NCBI GenBank assembly: GCA_964016885.1
Contig: OZ024746.1
Coordinates: 63,302,001 to 63,366,000 of the forward strand
Source of the DNA: Eledone cirrhosa
Taxonomy: Eukaryota
Reading direction: 5' to 3'
Length of the DNA stretch: 64,000 nucleotides
Shown: piece after piece, positions 4,383 to 53,481 of the stretch
Layout of the letters: each line of letters starts with the position of its first letter
How positions within the stretch are numbered: the stretch's first letter is position 1
Made by a program: the position numbers and the translations under genes
The notes under the pieces: model-generated
Told to the model about the DNA's origin: nothing
The model's database searches: none
Seen by the model: only the letters and a program-made list of their open reading frames with translations

Positions 4383-6410
<2,028 letters not shown>

Positions 6411-9341
6411 TTGGAATAAATGCTCTGAAATAGCGATATATATGTGAATATAGACATAGAATATTCGAAAATATTCTGTATGTTTATAATAAACATTTTG
6501 AAGACCTAATCGCTATAGAATAGAATGCGTCACGTATTACAATTAGATTCTCGATAAAAGCAAGGGAAGTAATCTACGCGTTTCATTCTTGTTAGAAATC
6601 ATCAGGACTACATATCCAGTGCTTTTATCGAGAATGACACAGCTAGAGACTTATAGAATACTTAGCTGTGTACAGGAACTGGTTTGAAAGAGCGGTTGCC
6701 GGTCCGGCAGAAATTAGAAATTGGAATAAATGCTCTGAAATAGCGATATATATGTGAATATAGACATAGAATATTCGAAAATATTCTGTATGTTTATAAT
6801 AAACATTTTGAAGACCTAATCGCTATAGAATAGAATACGTCACGTATTACAATTAGATTCTCGATAAAAGCAAGGGAAGTAATCTACGCGTTTCATTCTT
6901 GTTAGAAATCATCAGGACTACATATCCAGTGCTTTTATCGAGAATGACACAGCTAGAGACTTATAGAATACTTAGCTGTGTACAGGAACTGGTTTGAAAG
7001 AGCGGTTGCCGGTCCGGCAGAAATTAGAAATTGGAATAAATGCTCTGAAATAGCGATATATATGTGAATATAGACATAGAATATTCGAAAATATTCTGTA
7101 TGTTTATAATAAACATTTTGAAGACCTAATCGCTATAGAATAGAATACGTCACGTATTACAATTAGATTCTCGATAAAAGCAAGGGAAGTAATCTACGCG
7201 TTTCATTCTTGTTAGAAATCATCAGGACTACATATCCAGTGCTTTTATCGAGAATGACACAGCTAGAGACTTATAGAATACTTAGCTGTGTACAGGAACT
7301 GGTTTGAAAGAGCGGTTGCCGGTCCGGCAGAAATTAGAAATTGGAATAAATGCTCTGAAATAGCGATATATATGTGAATATAGACATAGAATATTCGAAA
7401 ATATTCTGTATGTTTATAATAAACATTTTGAAGACCTAATCGCTATAGAATAGAATACGTCACGTATTACAATTAGATTCTCGATAAAAGCAAGGGAAGT
7501 AATCTACGCGTTTCATTCTTGTTAGAAATCATCAGGACTACATATCCAGTGCTTTTATCGAGAATGACACAGCTAGAGACTTATAGAATACTTAGCTGTG
7601 TACAGGAACTGGTTTGAAAGAGCGGTTGCCGGTCCGGCAGAAATTAGAAATTGGAATAAATGCTCTGAAATAGCGATATATATGTGAATATAGACATAGA
7701 ATATTCGAAAATATTCTGTATGTTTATAATAAACATTTTGAAGACCTAATCGCTATAGAATAGAATACGTCACGTATTACAATTAGATTCTCGATAAAAG
7801 CAAGGGAAGTAATCTACGCGTTTCATTCTTGTTAGAAATCATCAGGACTACATATCCAGTGCTTTTATCGAGAATGACACAGCTAGAGACTTATAGAATA
7901 CTTAGCTGTGTACAGGAACTGGTTTGAAAGAGCGGTTGCCGGTCCGGCAGAAATTAGAAATTGGAATAAATGCTCTGAAATAGCGATATATATGTGAATA
8001 TAGACATAGAATATTCGAAAATATTCTGTATGTTTATAATAAACATTTTGAAGACCTAATCGCTATAGAATAGAATACGTCACGTATTACAATTAGATTC
8101 TCGATAAAAGCAAGGGAAGTAATCTACGCGTTTCATTCTTGTTAGAAATCATCAGGACTACATATCCAGTGCTTTTATCGAGAATGACACAGCTAGAGAC
8201 TTATAGAATACTTAGCTGTGTACAGAACTGGTTTGAAAGAGCGGTTGCCGGTCCGGCAGAAATTAGAAATTGGAATAAATGCTCTGAATAGCGATATATA
8301 TGTGAATATAGACATAGAATATTCGAAAATATTCTGTATGTTTATAATAAACATTTTGAAGACCTAATCGCTATAGAATAGAATACGTCACGTATTACAA
8401 TTAGATTCTCTCGATAAAAGCAAGGGAAGTAATCTACGCGTTTCATTCTTGTTAGAAATCATCAGGACTACATATCCAGTGCTTTTATCGAGAATGACAC
8501 AGCTAGAGACTTATAGAATACTTAGCTGTGTACAGGAACTGGTTTGAAAGAGCGGTTGCCGGTCCGGCAGAAATTAGAAATTGGAATAAATGCTCTGAAA
8601 TAGCGATATATATGTGAATATAGACATAGAATATTCGAAAATATTCTGTATGTTTATAATAAACATTTTGAAGACCTAATCGCTATAGAATAGAATACGT
8701 CACGTATTACAATTAGATTCTCGATAAAAGCAAGGGAAGTAATCTACGCGTTTCATTCTTGTTAGAAATCATCAGGACTACATATCCAGTGCTTTTATCG
8801 AGAATGACACAGCTAGAGACTTATAGAATACTTAGCTGTGTACAGGAACTGGTTTGAAAGAGCGGTTGCCGGTCCGGCAGAAATTAGAAATTGGAATAAA
8901 TGCTCTGAAATAGCGATATATATGTGAATATAGACATAGAATATTCGAAAATATTCTGTATGTTTATAATAAACATTTTGAAGACCTAATCGCTATAGAA
9001 TAGAATACGTCACGTATTACAATTAGATTCTCGATAAAAGCAAGGGAAGTAATCTACGCGTTTCATTCTTGTTAGAAATCATCAGGACTACATATCCAGT
9101 GCTTTTATCGAGAATGACACAGCTAGAGACTTATAGAATACTTAGCTGTGTACAGGAACTGGTTTGAAAGAGCGGTTGCCGGTCCGGCAGAAATTAGAAA
9201 TTGGAATAAATGCTCTGAAATAGCGATATATATGTGAATATAGACATAGAATATTCGAAAATATTCCGTATGTTTATAATAAACATTTTGAAGACCTAAT
9301 CGCTATAGAATAGAATACGTCACGTATTACAATTAGATTCT
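6411..9341 (-). mobile_element. Retrozyme-like tandem array: 9 complete + 1 partial copies of a 310-bp hammerhead-containing unit (ribozyme sense on - strand)
   Basis: TTGGAATAAATGCTCTG recurs at 6411, 6721, 7031, 7341, 7651, 7961, 8270, 8581, 8891 and 9201, with only a handful of differences between copies. Each full unit reads GTAGTC-CTGATGA-TTTCTAACAAGAAT-GAAAC-GC-GTA-GATTAC on the - strand. No ORF. Confidence 0.88.
6547..6635 (-). ncRNA. Type I hammerhead ribozyme, copy 1 of 9 on the - strand (repeats every ~310 bp to ~9115)
   Basis: Core CUGAUGA (6605-6599); GAAA; GUA triplet (6577-6575); stem I GUAGUC/GAUUAC extended by a perfect 16-bp inverted repeat (6547-6562 / 6620-6635); stem II UUCU/AGAA; palindromic stem III ACGCGU. 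Confidence 0.85.
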
Positions 9342-9532
9342 ATAGCGATTAGGTCTTCAAAATGTTTATTATAAACATACAGAATATTTTCGAATATTCT
9401 ATGTCTATATTCACATATATATCGCTATTTCAGAGCATTTATTCCAATTTCTAATTTCTGCCGGACCGGCAACCGCTCTTTCAAACCAGTTCCTGTACAC
9501 AGCTAAGTATTCTATAAGTCTCTAGCTGTGTC

Positions 9533-9621
9533 ATTCTCGATAAAAACACTGGATATGTAGTCCTGATGATTTCTAACAAGAATGAAACGCGTAGATTACT
9601 TCCCTTGCTTTTATCGAGAAT
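9533..9621 (+). ncRNA. Type I hammerhead ribozyme (+ strand copy 1), predicted cleavage after 9593
   Basis: GTAGTC(9557-9562) CTGATGA(9563-9569) TTTCTAACAAGAAT GAAACGC GTA(9591-9593) GATTAC(9594-9599). Confidence 0.85.
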
Positions 9622-9842
9622 CTAATTGTAATACGTGACGTATTCTATTCTATAGCGATTAGGTCTTCAAAATGTTTATTATAAACATACAGAATATTTT
9701 CGAATATTCTATGTCTATATTCACATATATATCGCTATTTCAGAGCATTTATTCCAATTTCTAATTTCTGCCGGACCGGCAACCGCTCTTTCAAACCAGT
9801 TCCTGTACACAGCTAAGTATTCTATAAGTCTCTAGCTGTGTC

Positions 9843-9931
9843 ATTCTCGATAAAAGCACTGGATATGTAGTCCTGATGATTTCTAACAAGAATGAAACGC
9901 GTAGATTACTTCCCTTGCTTTTATCGAGAAT
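9843..9931 (+). ncRNA. Type I hammerhead ribozyme (+ strand copy 2), predicted cleavage after 9903
   Basis: Identical core 310 nt downstream of copy 1: CTGATGA 9873-9879, GTA 9901-9903. Confidence 0.85.
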
Positions 9932-10033
9932 CTAATTGTAATACGTGACGTATTCTATTCTATAGCGATTAGGTCTTCAAAATGTTTATTATAAACATAC
10001 AGAATATTTTCGAATATTCTATGTCTATATTCA

Positions 10034-10285
10034 TATATATATATATATATATATTTATTTATATATATATATATTTATTTATATATATATTTATTTATAT
10101 ATATATATATTTATATATATATATATTTATTTATATATATATTTATTTATATATATATATATTTATATATATATATATTTATATATATATATATATATGT
10201 TTATATTTATATATATATATTTATATATTTATATATATATATTTTTATATTTATATATATATATTTATATTTATATATATATATT

Positions 10286-10350
<65 letters not shown>

Positions 10351-10695
10351 TTATATATATATATATTTATATATTTATATATATATATTTATATATATAT
10401 ATTTATATATATATATTTATATATATATATTTATATATATATATTTATATATATATATATTTATATTTATATATTTATATTTATATATTTATATATATAT
10501 ATTTATATATATATATTTATATATATATATTTATATATTTATATATATATATATATATTTATATATTTATATATATATATTTATATTTATATATTTATAT
10601 ATATATATTTATATATATATATTTATATATATATTTATATATATTTATATATTTATATATATATACTTATATATTTATATATATATATTTATATT

Positions 10696-10782
<87 letters not shown>

Positions 10783-10810
10783 TATATTTATATATATTAT
10801 ATATATATAT
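10034..10810. repeat. (TA)n/(TTTATA)n tract, right flank of the array
   Basis: Same composition and same T-excess polarity as the left tract. Confidence 0.97.
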
Positions 10811-25574: not shown

Positions 25575-26095
25575 ATCATGGACATTGTCCTTCCCATTGG
25601 TGTTGAAGACTTCCCACATCCTCCTTTTTCATTGGAACTGGTCCAGTACACGTCTGACGGCAGTTGCCAGAATCATATCACACCAGCCAATCATCCTGCC
25701 ACCATCTTACCAAGTGACCCCCACCTGTTTTTGTTGAAACAACTCTGAGCATCACCCTCTTGGTCAGCCTGCTGTCTGGCATGTGACATGTGTAGCCAAA
25801 AAGCCCAAGCTACCTCAGCATAATTGTCTGCCATAACCTTCTTGGCGCCATAACCTTCTTGGCTCAATGCACCCCAGGACTTCTGTGTTAGTAACATGTT
25901 CTGCAGATGTCTATAGCAGCACATCTCAAATACTTCCAGCTTGCACCAGTCTCCCTTCCACAATGTCCACTTTTCGGTAATGTATAGCAGAACACTGAAC
26001 ATATTCGTGCAGAGAACATCTATCTTCATGGCGAGGGCTATATTTTTACTTCTGCAGATCTTGCCCAAACTCTGCCAGTGTGCTGCACAACAATG
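25575..26095 (-). mobile_element. Degenerate RTE-like LINE 3' fragment
   Basis: ORF 25691-26101 has FSVLLY.TEKWTL...KLEVFEMCCYR, a typical post-RT region of RTE elements. Confidence 0.75.
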
Positions 26096-27029
26096 TATCA
26101 AAATAGGGGACTAAAATATTTAAAATGTTAAGAACCTGGTCCATCCTTGGTAATATAAAGTTGATTTTTTTTTTTATCAACCAACAAAAAGGCAGATGAA
26201 AAAATAAAAGTTATTAAAAGTAAATGGATATTTTTAGAATATAATCTGGCTGAACAACAGGAAATATTAATGTCAAGTTTGTATTTAGATACAGAATGAT
26301 TGAGTGGCTCAGCTGCCAAACTCAGATCATGCTTCAGGAATCCCTATTCTGTGGCACAATACACTTTCTGTTTTAACAAGACCCTTAATTCTACTTGTAA
26401 AGGTACATGACCTGGCGGTTGGGGTATGATTCTAATTCCAGGGTGGATGTTGCACTGTCAGTAATTCAATTTGTGTCAACTTAAGTTGTAATGAATATTA
26501 AGGTAGTCAAAACAATTAAAATATAAAAACAACCTTTAAATAGTTCATGTTCTGTGTAACTTATTTACTCAGAAAACATTTGTATATTTGATTAAGTGAC
26601 TAACAGTTTAATGGAAGTTGTAATAATGCTCAGGAGAGGGATTAAAGATAAGAGCGTATAGTAATAAGATTACAGATGTCTTAAGATGTTGGTAACATTA
26701 ATGTATAGGAAAGGATTAACAATATATTGTTTCTTTTACTGGTTGGTTCAGATAGGTGATTGCTTCTCATTCGCAATAGAATATCTTCATATTCTCTTTT
26801 TTACTTTATTATTAGTTTAGTCAAGAGAAAAAAAAGCCATGCTCATGGCCATCAGGGAGCAACCAAAACTGGCCAGATTGATGTCATTAAATTGACCACT
26901 TCCTAGATGAGAGTAGTCATGCTGCTTCCCTGTTAACTAAAATATTTGTCTTTGCTAGGTTTGATTTAACCATTTGATACTGAACTGACTGAAATTGCTC
27001 TGGATTTATGATAGAAAACTGCTTATTTT

Positions 27030-34420: not shown

Positions 34421-35141
34421 CTAATTGCGCACATTACAACTAATTTTTTTAATTTTATATTACAAAGATAAAACATGCCTGATATAGATCATCATCATCA
34501 TATGTCTGTTTTTCCTGCTAGCAAGGATTGCATGGGTTATCAGAGACTAAATCAGTGTTTAATCAAAGTCGCTGGTCTCTCTAATGAGCCAAGGGTTGTA
34601 TCTTGCTTATGTATATTCCCACATATATTTTATTGCACTATATATGTTATTGTGGCACCAACACTAGGTAGATCATCACAACAGAAGAGTCCTCTCTATC
34701 CTTTCTTTGGCAAGTTTTCAATGGCTAAGTGCCCTTCCTATTACCAACCACATAACAGGGCATACTAAAGGGTACTCTCAACCCTTTTTTGGCATGATTC
34801 TAACCCCACATAGTGTACTAAGTGTATCATATCATGACATCGGTACTAGGTAGGCTATCGGTCAGTGATTCAACCGAAGTGCATACTTGTCCCACATCTA
34901 TCCAGTCATTGATAAGGTTATAAACTGTGATAAAAGAACTTTGGCAAATCCATCAGTTAATTTACTAATTAACTAATTGATTGTTAATAAAACCATAGTA
35001 AAATACAACCTGTGTGTGTTTGACCTTATTACCTTCCCAAAGTACAACAACATCTGTTTCAACATACAATTTCACATCAAGAATCTTGCAAAACAAAATA
35101 GAAAAATGAAATACAAATATTTACCAATTGTTAAAATATTT

Positions 35142-35485
35142 GAGATACACCACATGATATCCCACCAATATTTAGGATACACCACATCATATACCACCAA
35201 TACTTAAGATACACCAAATGATATCCCACCAACATTTGAAATACACCGCATCCTATCCCACCAACATGAGATACACCACATCGTATCCCACCAATACTTG
35301 AGATACATCACATAATATCCCACCAATACTTAAGCTACATCACATGATATCCCAGCAATATATGGGGTACACCACATCATATCCCACTAATATGAGATAC
35401 ACCACATGATATCCTAACAATATATGAGATACCACATCGTATCCCACCAATGTATGGGATACACCCCATCATATCCCACTAATAT
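35142..35485. repeat. ~29-30-bp minisatellite, ~11-12 diverged copies (GAGATACACCACATCATATCCCACCAATA)
   Basis: Recurring ATACACCACAT..TATCCCACCAA motif. Confidence 0.88.
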
Positions 35486-35722
35486 TTCATACTATTTTAT
35501 TTCTACTTTTTGCCGTGTCTTCATCTAAAAGAATTGAAGCAGAATAAGTAGTGGAACTTACTTAATAATGTGATTAATTTTGTATTTATTTAATTCTTAT
35601 CTACTTAAAAGTTATCCTGTCAGATCATGGCTAATTATTATCTCCACTAATCAACACAGTGGTGCATTTATCTTCAAAATTCTATTCATATGTGTGTCAA
35701 GGTCATTTTATTTAAATTCATG

Positions 35723-36230: not shown

Positions 36231-37687
36231 TGCTTAATTTCAAGCACAGGAAAGGCTGTGCGGTTATGAAATTTGCTTTGCAACCACATGGTTTCAGGCT
36301 TCATCCCACAGCATTATGCAAGTTTCTTCTACAATAGTCTTCGGCTGACCAATGCCTTGTGAGTGAACTTAGTTGACAGAAACTGTAAAGAAATTTATCT
36401 TACATATGTCCGTGTATGTGTGTATATCAATTTACCAACAACACTAAAAAAAGCAACTAGTAATGTTTTTGTTCTGTATAAATCTTGCAGTGTAGCCTGT
36501 TCAACAAAAATGAACAGTATATACCATATTTCTAAGTATGGGTTGACATCAGAATCACTGCCTCAACATCCTATCCATGCCAACAGAAAAAAAAATGAGA
36601 ATGATGAGGATAATAAATCTTATAATTCAGAGAACTCTAGATTAACCCTTTTAATACCAGCCTTCCTATGACTACATATATTAAAGTGCTCATATTTAAA
36701 TTTTTGTGAGATTTTAGCAAGGAAATCTCCCTCACATTGAATAACACAGTACCTAGTTACACTTTCTGAATAAAGAATGGGATGTTTATGGCTGGAATAG
36801 TTTTGATATGTCTACTTCGTGAGAACTAACCTGGCTAAACTACAACTATTAATATATTAAGATTATTTTATGAAATCCCTTTAGAGTCTTGATTATATTC
36901 AAAATCAACTGAAACAGGCAATCTCTCATAAATAGTTATGAAAGGCTTAACACGGTCTACTTAAATATGTGTAAACTTATGTAGCGACATAATAGGATAG
37001 CCAGTATTCTGTTCTAGGGAGAATCTCTAACTACCTAACATTTACATTATTTAAGGGTCTAACAGATGACAAAATCCAATGAATGGAAGGATGCTGGAAA
37101 AAATCCTTCCAACTCATGCATATTTAAAATGATGTAACTGCTCTTTTTCATATCCATTTTCATTTAATAGCTACTGGAACACTAACTAAATGTGGAGACT
37201 ATAGTATTGGGCAATTGAACAATGACACCTTAGTGTCTAAGAGGATTTTTCAGTTTGGATGATCATATGACAATTTTCTCTAGTGTTAGTGCCATGATAA
37301 GATGCACCCAGTCCACCCTGTAAAGTGGTTGTGCAGGTGCCATGAAAAAATGCATCCAGTGTGCTCTGCAAAGTGGTTGATGTTAAGAAGAGCATCCAGC
37401 CATAGATGCCAGGCCAAATATGGAATATATAAGCAAGACATGGTCCCCTGACCAATTTAGCCTCAGAACTAGACAACCTGTCCAACTCATTCCAGCATGA
37501 AGATTGGATGTAAAAAGAATGATGATGATGATTTATATATATATATTTATATATATATAATTACAATTATATAGAATTATCTCAGATTTTTTTCTGCTTC
37601 AATATATGATATTCTTTTTCTTTGCTATTTGTATTCTTTCTAACAATTTAAAAATGTATAATTAAATCCTTCTTGGTTTCTCTTCAG

Positions 37688-37915
37688 ATATTGCAAAAGG
37701 ACATAGAATCCCACTTGAGAGTGGTTTCAGCAGTTCTTAAGCTTGGTGAATGCCTTCAAAATGGAACAAACGAAGACCAGCTATGTGAAGAATCTATCAC
37801 TTTTCCAGAGTCACTCAATGATGTCAGCCACAATCTGGAGAAAAGATGGCATACAATTTGGTTACAGTCACTTGAGTGGCAGTGTCGTTTAGAACAAGCA
37901 ATCATCTCTAAGAAG
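37688..37915 (+). CDS. Internal coding exon, spectrin-repeat protein (klarsicht/AKAP6/nesprin-like): ILQKDIESHLRVVSAVLKLGECL...NLEKRWHTIWLQSLEWQCRLEQAIISKK
   Basis: Acceptor TTTCTCTTCAG|, donor AAG|GTATGT, 228 nt, phase 0/0. Spectrin-repeat helices B and C (LQxDIExH...LExRWxxIxxxxxEWQxRLE). Continues exon 13297-13421 in frame. Confidence 0.92.
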
Positions 37916-46732: not shown

Positions 46733-46945
46733 TGCTGGTGAGACAACAAAAATACCCAGTTCACCCTATAAGATGGTCATATTGGTACCATGACAACTAA
46801 AATACCCAGTTCAGCCAGTGAGATGGTCATACTGGTACCATGATAACAAAAATACCCAGTTCACCCTGTGAGATGGTCATGCTGGTACCATGACAACAAA
46901 AATACCCAGTTCACCCTGTGAGATGGTCGTGCTGGTGCCACAGCA
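46733..46945. repeat. ~47-bp minisatellite x~4 (CATGACAACAAAAATACCCAGTTCACCCTGTGAGATGGTCATGCTGGTAC)
   Basis: Direct reading. Resembles the internally repeated unit of the RTE 3' UTR. Confidence 0.85.
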
Positions 46946-47903: not shown

Positions 47904-49481
47904 TCATCATCGTTTAACGTCTATCTTCCACGCTAGCATGGATTTAGATGAGAATTGTCCCACTTGAGGCAAGATTGGTCGTATGGGACTGTCTGGCAGG
48001 TTTTCTACGGCTGGATGCCCTTCCTAACACCAACCACGTTTACAGTGTGGACTGGGAGGTTTTTACCGTGTTACCTACACGGCCACATTACAGCGTGGAC
48101 TGTGTTTTTTTTTTTGTCATGACACCTACACAACCTCATTTATTTAAGACTGGATGTTGTGGCACCAACATAACTTTACAGAGAAAGGGGTGGTGTTGAT
48201 GGGGATGGGGGTGTATTTTTGTTAAAGGTGCCTACTGACTGTAGGTTTCGCTTTGTATTTAGGTGGGTCTTCTGTATTACTGCGTAGTGCCAAATATCTC
48301 GATCCAGCAACATTGTCTCAGAGTAAGAGTGTAAGGTCAGAATTTATGAAATCGTCCCAGGTTTTTCTGGGTCTGCCTACTCCGTAACTTCCGTCAATTT
48401 TGATTGCCCTGCACTTTTTTATACAGCTGTCGTCTTTCATGCGCATCTTTGACCATACCAACCTAGTCTTCTCTCGAGTAAATGTGAACGGCAAAGCATA
48501 AATGAACTAAGTGAGAAATTAGGAATAAGAGGGATCAGATGCTGTTTATGTTACTATTACACATCCAACAGAGCATGCAAGCTTCGTTCCTCTCCAGTCT
48601 GAGTAGATCCTCTGCACACAGTGCCCAAGTCTCACTGCCATGTAACATTGCTGTTTATATGCATGCATCATACAGCCTGCCTTTCATTTTTAGAGAGAAA
48701 CCTTTAGCGGCCAATAGTGGTATAAGCTCTCTGAACTTTTTCCATCCCGTTCTGACTCTGGCTACTGTACTTTCTGAGCACCCTCCACCACTGCTGAATT
48801 TGTCACCCAGGTAACGGAAGGTGTCCACTATTTCTATAGAGCCATCTAGGCAGTAGGAGCTAGTATCCTGTGGGTGCTTGCTACTTATTGCATCTGAGCA
48901 CCGGCCATATATAATATCTACATTCTTAGATAGCTTACCTGTGATCCCACTACATCTTTTATGAACCCATACTTTGCATTTGGGACATAAAATGGAATTT
49001 CTGCCTACTCCTTTCCTACACACTGAGCATGGTCATTTCCCAGAGGGGACCTGTGCTCTATTTTCCGTCCTACATACTAGAACTTTAGTCTTAGCCAGGT
49101 TAATTTTAAGGCCTTTTGATTCTCGGCCATGCTTCCATGTTTGGAATTTCTTCTCTAGTTCATCCATCGATTCAGCTATGAGCGTTAGATCATCTGCATA
49201 TAGAAGTTCCTATGGGCAGCCGGTCTTGAACTCCTCTGTTATAGCCTGAAGGGCAATAATAAATAGGAGGGGGCTAAGGACAGAGCCCTGATGAACACCA
49301 ACTTTTACGCTAAATTCTTCACTATATTCGTTGTTAATTCTAACCTTGCTGACTGTTTCTTTATACATGGCTTCTATAGCTCTCACAAGCCATTCATCAA
49401 CACCTAGTTTTCTAAGGGCCCACCAGATAATGGCGCGGGGGACTCTGTCAAATGCTTTCTCCAACTCAACAAAAGCTAAGT
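47904..49481 (-). mobile_element. 5'-truncated RTE-clade LINE (RT domain, Cys-rich insert, C-terminus, 3' UTR)
   Basis: LEKAFDRVPR...GVHQGSVLSPLLF, then LLYADDL after a stop, then CSVCRKGVGRNSILCPKCKVWVHKRC, FRYLGD, HGSETW and GRPRKTW. The 3' UTR ends in GACGTTAAACGATGATG. Confidence 0.92.
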
Positions 49482-49619
49482 ATACGGGTATATATATATA
49501 TACCCCTATACTTATATATATATATACGTTCAGATCTAGCTGTCGAAACGGCCATCGGGGTCCTGACTCTTTTCCTATATATATATATATATGTATATAA
49601 AATCGTCATTATTATTATT

Positions 49620-52771: not shown

Positions 52772-53005
52772 GGGCCAGGTAGTGGTGTTAACCATGCCCC
52801 ATATGCTTGCAACAGAGAGGACTCTACTACTGGCACCCAAGGGCCAGATAGTGGTGTTAAACTTGGTCTGAATGCTTGCAGCAGAGTGGATTCCACTAAA
52901 GACACACCCAAAGGCCAGGTGATGATATTAAACCTGGTTCATATGTTTGCTACAGGGTGAACTCTACTAAAGACACACCCAAGGGCTATGTGGTGGTGTT
53001 AAACT
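52772..53005. repeat. ~70-bp diverged tandem repeat x~3.3 (GGGCCAGGTAGTGGTGTTAAAC...ATGCTTGCA..AGAG.GGACTCTACTA...CACCCAA)
   Basis: GGCCAG.T..TGGTGTTAA recurs at ~52772, ~52841, ~52912 and ~52983. Confidence 0.7.
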
Positions 53006-53481
53006 GGGTAACTGATTGTCTACCACCCATGTGGGATTTGAACTCAAAACACAAAGAGCCAGAATAAATACCACAAGGTATATTATGTTATCCAACAATT
53101 TTTCCGATCCCTAAACTGGTACTTTATTTACTGATCCCAAAAAGGATGAAAGACAAATCTGACCTCAGCAGAATTTGAACTCAGAGCACAGAAAATCAAT
53201 AGAAATACCATGAAGTATTTTTTCCTATGCTCTAATGACTTTTCCAATTTGCCACTAATGAGGGATGAGCAACTCTCAGCTATTCAACTAGTAAAATACT
53301 GGTGCAAAAAAAAAAATCAGTTGATCTTTTGCCTTATAAGATAGAAATCTATATTTCATTTATTTTGGGGTTTCCTGTCCTGTCTGGGATGTCAGTAGAC
53401 CCGCTGGAATACTAACTCAAGTCTGTGAAGACCTGTCTATGATGATGATGGTGGTGGTGTAGTATATTTACACTACTCATT

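Follow-up and report, generated by a model that had tools for sequence, protein, structure and literature searches.

A 64,000-nucleotide stretch of the Eledone cirrhosa genome (assembly GCA_964016885.1, contig OZ024746.1, positions 63,302,001 to 63,366,000 of the forward strand; hereafter the window) contains an array of 310-bp units that carry a type I hammerhead ribozyme motif. Our analysis suggests that the array is an insertion of a non-autonomous hammerhead retrozyme of the class without long terminal repeats (non-LTR), made in trans by the reverse transcriptase (RT)-endonuclease of a Penelope-like element (PLE) that primed both nicked strands on one RNA circle, a reading to which we assign a probability of roughly 0.6. 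PLE-type integration is itself well supported by the insertion footprint. The initial annotation had mentioned mobilisation of such repeats by PLEs, and the inverted arms of PLE type with a tail described below support this more directly.

The array had been taken for a single head-to-tail satellite, which proved wrong. The 310-bp unit and the total of 11.7 copies were borne out, with 99% matches between copies, but Tandem Repeats Finder returned two period-310 arrays (6410–9341, 9.5 copies, and 9337–10042, 2.3 copies), which correspond to two divergent arms of 9.46 units on the − strand and 2.25 units on the + strand. This inversion, overlooked at first, is the most informative feature of the array. 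Both RNA 3′ ends face outward, and the arms meet through a 5-nt overlap. The array interrupts a TA tract of about 2.8 kb whose T-rich strand bias is identical on both flanks. With units numbered from the first nucleotide 3′ of the GUA cleavage site (u1, window 9594 on the + strand), the layout is as follows.

4385..6409, unstranded: (TA)n-rich target tract, portion to the left of the array, from repeat finding
6410..9341, − strand: left arm of 9.46 units, extending from an inner end at u24 to the distal outer end at u165
6410..6444, − strand: 35-nt "tail" (u131–u165), on the left outer end only; compare the PLE tail (PMC8557442, PMC11167929)
9337..9341, unstranded: head-to-head inversion junction with 5-nt microhomology
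9337..10033, + strand: right arm, 2.25 units, starting at u54, outer end at u130 (proximal end)
10034..10810, unstranded: (TA)n-rich target tract, portion to the right of the array, from repeat finding

The unit was correctly described as devoid of open reading frames (ORFs): the array holds none of at least 110 aa except frames entering from the TA tracts. It lacks an ORF with RT plus GIY-YIG, so it is not an autonomous PLE. An Rfam match to MIR5380 (81 bits, 9246–9402) was rejected as a perfect hairpin created by the inversion, not a microRNA.

The same layout recurs elsewhere. We analysed 70 regions including the window, all the others being located on C1 of one assembly. The regions had been fetched by the hammerhead pattern (12 regions), from a list of paired ends (40) and from a list of unpaired ends (20), and L027, L029 and L036 were then dropped (low-complexity false matches, overlap with L030, partial cover). 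The set comprises 58 simple two-arm loci with a − arm followed by a + arm, nine single-arm loci and three compound ones. Each of the 58 two-arm loci pairs one proximal end, 130–139 nt past the cleavage site, with one distal end, at 165–170 nt. This hetero-pairing was found at 21 of 21 loci that had not been selected on both ends (binomial p about 1e-6), and the 12 hammerhead-pattern regions likewise have arms in the − then + order with outer ends near u130–139 and u165–170. Outer ends fell at u165 (58), u130 (39), u139 (25), u167–170 (8) and u134 (1). Of the 179 ends listed for the first 218 Mb of C1, 104 form 52 divergent pairs at most 20 kb apart, every one combining a proximal and a distal end, and the other 75 are unpaired by this criterion. 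Convergent arms inside one insertion were absent from the 70 regions. Exact counts of TA junctions gave 1,041 for u165 followed by TA (distal) and 1,256 for u130–139 followed by TA (proximal), with no match in the controls. As in PLEs, a tail of 30–40 bp is present on one end only; tails range from 26 to 40 nt in the 310-bp family. TA repeats adjoin 114 of 116 outer ends and mask any target-site duplication; the TA bias was also seen at the hammerhead-pattern loci, though most loci came via TA-junction patterns. Inner junctions are spread across the unit: 29 show microhomology, six are blunt and 23 have extra bases, a few of the latter being artefacts of the junction-walking procedure. At one locus, 272 nt of foreign sequence lie between both arms (L031:2899-3170), with no match among the analysed loci.

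Palindromic chimeric long reads occur, and a single assembly was analysed; the inversion might then be a read chimera or an assembly artefact in an ordinary satellite. However, the flanks are not mirror images, the offset between outer ends is fixed at 58 of 58 loci, and contigs of run X2, which is possibly not assembly-independent, exit the unit into TA at u139 (10 contigs) and u170 (1). An artefact is therefore extremely improbable.

Median arm lengths are 1.0 and 1.5 kb, the longest arms extend to 8.5 kb and 27 units, and 44 of 116 arms have five or more units; the lengths are not cleanly exponential (Kolmogorov-Smirnov p 0.008), in a sample limited by fetch size. The proximal arm is the longer by more than one unit at 17 of 58 loci and the distal arm at 24, and any correlation between the two lengths is weak (rho 0.21, p 0.11). 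These data bear on the possibility that a single complementary DNA (cDNA) folds back and primes itself, so that the second arm is a DNA copy and the tail results from endonuclease resolution. Such a process was proposed for inverted repeats of rotifer Penelope (PMC3846280), it would account for the common haplotype of both arms, and some junctions do lie within palindromic parts of the unit. Nevertheless, the longer arm may be of either kind, which speaks against fold-back copying, and where the proximal arm is longer the copy could not have acquired the 35-nt tail without fresh RNA priming. Together with the poor correlation of arm lengths, this makes fold-back improbable.

We next consider the template. 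The 59 two-arm loci have 23 haplotypes and no fixed difference between arms. Many haplotypes are private to a single locus yet fill every unit of both its arms; a variant that occupies the whole of a new array has to have come through one monomer. At offsets common to both arms, 54 substitutions are unshared and seven are shared, six of the latter from one locus. Within loci, 78 variants are singletons versus 11 present in at least two units, some of them in blocks or at intervals. The singletons were counted in 179,888 bases (4e-4 per base, a part of which may be assembly errors), and this low rate argues that the family is young, as had been supposed. Inner ends lie within 3 nt of the cleavage site in five of 116 cases versus 2.6 expected, and three of the five are artefacts of a fixed insertion. 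The lack of a pile-up at the cleavage site indicates that the RT did not run off cleaved 5′ ends. The insertion in question, of 1 nt and located two bases past the cleavage site, is fixed at five loci, perhaps through two events, and is possibly a ligation scar. A circular template is likely from these patterns, and repeated copying of one RNA circle is the model proposed in PMC7229834.

The homogeneity of the arrays could also have arisen locally, if unequal crossing over later expanded short PLE-type insertions, a scenario put forward for vertebrate retrozymes (10.64898/2026.07.22.740005). The 11 substitutions found in several units of a locus are of the kind that this would generate. In contrast, the large excess of singletons, the lack of arm-fixed differences and the low divergence in arms that commonly reach five units or more make local expansion a poor candidate, with a small chance of being correct.

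All eleven hammerhead cores reported initially are present and identical, nine on the − strand and two on the + strand, and all have the type I topology, with an intact core, the GUA triplet and stems I to III. Stems I and II comprise 6 and 4 bp, the latter resting on a U·U, and stem III is a 2-bp palindrome, ACGCGU. The core of the motif as first written stands, but its stem II does not: an extra U had been omitted on each side, and positions 10.1–11.1 are an unpaired U·U. The G10.1–C11.1 pair is replaced by this U·U, or by an A–U pair in the T287A haplotype. Stems of 6, 4 and 2 bp with a palindromic loop III represent the canonical metazoan layout (PMC4209133). The cleavage sites predicted after 9593 and 9903 on the + strand follow from the GUA triplets. 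In Rfam, all 11 sites match Hammerhead_HH9, but at 19.2 bits and an E value of 0.54 for a gathering score of 52; Hammerhead_1, the family named initially, is absent from the output, which retains the best family per clan only. A relaxed descriptor of the type I fold, with 5 bp in stem I, matched two of 20,000 mononucleotide-shuffled units. The ribozymes and the monomer are positioned as follows.

9557..9599, + strand: type I hammerhead, stems of 6 bp, 4 bp (over U·U) and palindromic 2 bp, predicted cleavage after 9593
9867..9909, + strand: type I hammerhead, predicted cleavage after 9903
9049–9091, 8739–8781, 8429–8471, 8119–8161 and 7809–7851, − strand: hammerheads 1 to 5 of nine, core matches
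7499–7541, 7189–7231, 6879–6921 and 6569–6611, − strand: hammerheads 6 to 9 of nine, core matches
6569..9091, − strand: overall span of the nine hammerheads, stem I extents counted from core starts
9594..9903, + strand: full monomer from cleavage site to cleavage site, predicted 310-nt RNA
9691..9710, + strand: 8-bp hairpin (u98–u117), a short distance 5′ of the proximal end

The monomer has a predicted fold of −72.5 kcal/mol (z −4.4), better than 100 of 100 shuffles. The u98–u117 hairpin is retained with altered letters in a sister family, described below, which makes it a candidate part of the signal recognized by the RT. Among 23 distinct locus-fixed substitutions, nine lie inside the 43-nt hammerhead and none at the 14 core positions; six of the nine affect N7, loop II or 10.1, and the remaining three are swaps between G·U and A–U. 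Singleton substitutions strike the core five times out of 78. In the sister family, two stem II pairs are altered on both sides, and the base of the stem is kept as U·U or A–U. Core-sparing fixed changes and stem II covariation support selection on the ribozyme, as judged by comparison of copies. Contigs of 340 nt that return to their own start, one each in runs X1, X3 and X6, fit a tandem and a circle equally. No credible Pol III boxes were recognized in the 310-nt unit, and its 11-nt resemblance to a tRNA-Ala-like gene was discarded as being at chance level (45 of 500 shuffles).

PLEs offer precedents for the insertion footprint. Naiads have an inverted truncated copy, a 30–40-bp tail on one end only and a (TA)n bias, and a CX2-5CxxC linker is the proposed source of the microsatellite bias of Neptune (PMC8557442). 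A purified anole PLE cuts and extends both strands, with synthesis initiated at two positions inside the RNA that delimit the tail, and is predicted to be a dimer (PMC11167929). Pairs of PLE hammerheads on opposite strands have also been noted (PMC4209133).

In the E. cirrhosa genome, 150 GIY-YIG matches were scored of 10,597 candidates. The resident PLE ORFs encode an RT, a C-terminal GIY-YIG and a CxxxCxxC linker, and on these features they appear to be Neptune-like. All translated GIY-YIG matches had a C-terminal endonuclease, and the sample accordingly comprises PLEs other than Naiads. Hammerhead variants are present in the pseudo-long terminal repeats (pLTRs) of the resident PLEs, and several of these variants have the U3–A8 core reported in PMC4209133. 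Their insertions L133, L134, L135, L141 and L200 are divergent, with one short and one long end, and two resident families have tails of about 40 nt, near the 26–40 nt of the retrozyme. The attribution of the 310-bp family to cephalopods is at most consistent with the relationships of one PLE protein, whose closest named animal relative is from Argonauta hians (55% identity), followed by bivalves (about 44%). Two routes to a partner were abandoned: the score of L143 (z 5.8) was due to its TA tract, and a U3–A8 hammerhead pattern combined with the retrozyme stem III gave eight matches against two in the control, with no family behind them.

Other hammerhead elements were observed around these loci. 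At L198:900-1710 (C1:4922160-4925183), a retrozyme relative on the − strand is fused, through a 3-nt overlap and without TA spacer, to a pLTR fragment that lies in inverted orientation and comes from the Neptune-like family of highest abundance. This single case may represent a template switch between two RNAs and give a lead to the partner. Long PLE frames open from stop to stop are present at L128:3809-6622 (− strand), L129, L130 and L131 (938, 844, 1096 and 636 aa, respectively), with U3–A8 or canonical hammerheads in their pLTRs; several (TA)n-targeting families stack within the same tracts at these four loci. A third hammerhead element (L130, L133, L135, L136 and L208) has nearly the same stem II and is inverted in (TA)n; its ends are about 32–42 and 100 nt past the cleavage site, and its tail is similar in length to the tail of the L128 PLE family. 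Further hammerhead-like families are found at L187/L194/L195/L202 and at L190/L203, and L203, with a period of 484 bp, may be another retrozyme. A dense single-strand cluster of a short hammerhead-like motif with irregular spacing (C1:20932405-21273337) is probably a satellite.

The family is very abundant. By exact-pattern search of the genome (3.0 Gb, 1,796 contigs), which the initial annotation had proposed to do by similarity, a 32-mer of the window haplotype has 4,217 copies (control 0), and a core 15-mer common to most haplotypes has 19,121 (control 1). At about 10 units per two-arm insertion, we estimate about 1,900 insertions genome-wide. The combination of an ORF-less tandem unit in the range of 150–450 bp, a GC content below 50%, one hammerhead per unit and dispersal over many loci supports the assignment to non-LTR retrozymes; this is a real, young retrozyme family. 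The sister family (L099:2432-2870, L145-L174) has a 318-nt unit identical to the 310-bp unit at 213 of 310 positions, the same ends and inverted layout, and a longer stem III. Its copies are about 95% alike and mostly of one or two units, with 3,203 first-look candidates.

Several observations weigh against the copying of one cleaved, circularised monomer at a PLE cut. At L062 the haplotype switches at the same offset in both arms, at L053 one variant in one unit is mirrored in both arms, at L030 two variants recur at a 7-unit interval, and at L091 a block in part of one arm differs. These four loci fit linear or multimeric templates in some events, and L062 indicates that both arms can derive from the same molecule. 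Twelve of the 70 regions are not simple two-arm insertions, and the 40 fetched from the paired list had been selected on both ends. The Rfam scores are far under the gathering threshold, the absence of core changes among 23 fixed substitutions is not significant alone (about one is expected), and the stem II covariation involves two families only and few independent events. With a U·U base and a 2-bp palindromic stem III, efficient cleavage of the monomer is doubtful. In Xenopus, eight of nine predicted retrozyme dimers were not cleaved in vitro (10.64898/2026.07.22.740005), and for the anole PLE hammerhead cleavage is dispensable and unprocessed RNA is the main template (PMC11167929). Comparison of the unit with the pLTRs of four Neptune-like, one Poseidon-like and one further family yielded TA-driven matches only. 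The short palindromic stem III suggests that any cleavage would be dimeric (PMC4209133).

A PLE might instead prime at two sites on a long uncleaved transcript of a donor array, either linear or multimeric-circular, with a minor role for the hammerhead and with array length inherited or regained by recombination. The mirrored variants of L062 and L053, the 7-unit period of L030, the anole assay (PMC11167929) and the slow cleavage predicted from the U·U base and the 2-bp stem III would all fit such a template, and as the donor arrays are themselves homogeneous, homogeneous arms are compatible with it. However, locus-private variants in all units of both arms need a monomer bottleneck, mirrored substitutions amount to just seven of 61 testable ones with six from one locus, arms extend to 27 units, and 1-nt insertions are fixed two bases past the cleavage site at five loci. 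We consider an uncleaved template unlikely overall, although it deserves serious attention.

We thus favor PLE-mediated copying of an RNA circle, which would proceed as follows. Arrays would be transcribed into multimers, which the hammerheads would cut to 310-nt monomers, probably as dimers via the palindromic stem III, and a host ligase would circularise the monomers, both steps being modeled on other animals. A PLE protein, probably a dimer, would nick a (TA)n tract on both strands. Priming from one 3′ end would begin 130–139 nt, and from the other 165–170 nt, past the cleavage site, at the positions where the ends are observed. Each RT would then travel less than one to 27 turns around the same monomer, so that the arms would be multimeric from birth, in keeping with their observed homogeneity. 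The two cDNAs would be joined at arbitrary points, by the microhomology, blunt ends or short insertions seen at the junctions, to give the head-to-head inversion. The full version of this scheme, in which each insertion stems from one PLE dimer at a double-strand cut, two fixed internal sites and rolling-circle reverse transcription of one 310-nt circle, has in our opinion about even odds.

The 310-bp family resembles the metazoan non-LTR retrozymes of coral, mussel and axolotl in its ORF-less, low-GC tandem unit of about 300 bp, its type I hammerhead in each unit and its strong monomer fold (PMC7229834). Newt satellite 2 and the schistosome repeats are cited as members of this class, and the base of helix II is likewise a U·U mismatch in axolotl HHR_Amex2 (PMC7229834). 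For those retrozymes RNA, cleavage and circles were demonstrated, whereas for the 310-bp family they are predicted. Unlike in those descriptions, its insertions have two divergent multimer arms, two fixed ends and (TA)n targets; the word "inverted" is absent from the main text of PMC7229834. Vertebrate retrozymes likewise co-occur with Neptune and Poseidon PLEs, and their mobilisation in trans was proposed on the basis of co-occurrence and pLTR similarity, with local amplification invoked and no mechanism settled on (10.64898/2026.07.22.740005). The 310-bp family is tied to PLEs by its insertion footprint instead, no pLTR similarity having emerged from the families compared. The terms "tail" and "orientation" do not occur in the text available for the vertebrate study (10.64898/2026.07.22.740005).

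The endonuclease-bearing PLEs (Neptune, Naiad and Poseidon) share with our family the head-to-head inversion, the one-end tail of 30–40 bp, AT or (TA)n targets and internal initiation downstream of a hammerhead (PMC8557442, PMC11167929, PMC3846280). Chlamys elements such as MRC1 are similar as non-autonomous PLE dependants with multicopy head-to-tail insertions, but their 3′ ends are like those of the autonomous partners, and most of them have no hammerhead (PMC8557442). In contrast to endonuclease-bearing PLEs, the 310-bp family has no ORF, and its arms are long perfect 310-nt multimers rather than partial tandems of an element of 3–4 kb. Twin priming of L1 also generates head-to-head inversions, from two primers at one break on one RNA, with one priming site at the poly(A) end and an internal one whose position varies. 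The 310-bp family lacks poly(A), and its two sites are both internal and at fixed positions. In the main texts of the openly readable literature, we found no account of a cephalopod retrozyme or of divergent tail-ended retrozyme arrays. The class is known; the novelty lies in finding a strict two-end rule for a retrozyme and in the evidence that each insertion derives from a single monomer.

Elsewhere in the window, a probable exon encodes a spectrin-repeat-like product without Pfam match (37655-37915, + strand), and two fragments of non-LTR retrotransposon ORFs lie on the − strand (48655-49605, with weak RT and PHD matches in Pfam, and 25691-26110). There are minisatellites at 35135-35487 (period 32), 46742-46940 (period 50) and 52772-53009 (period 71), and many dispersed repeats of 100–200 bp. 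At L029:4760-4833, a tRNA-Ala(GGC)-like gene or the head of a short interspersed element is flanked by two retrozyme insertions.

The retrozyme literature has proposed PLEs as mobilising agents and circles as templates, with no direct evidence for either (PMC7229834, 10.64898/2026.07.22.740005), and the origin of the PLE tail and inverted repeats is only partly explained (PMC11167929, PMC8557442). The rule of one proximal and one distal end, the single haplotype per insertion and the arms of up to 27 units provide a countable footprint for both the re-entry of retrozymes into the genome and the PLE tail. They also define a 310-nt RNA with two start sites that is testable with purified PLE protein, and point to a natural system of targeted, multimeric RNA-templated insertion. 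If the proposed mechanism is true, the approximately 1,900 insertions of this family would record how retrozymes move, and the tail and inverted repeat of PLEs would be the product of obligate two-site twin priming.

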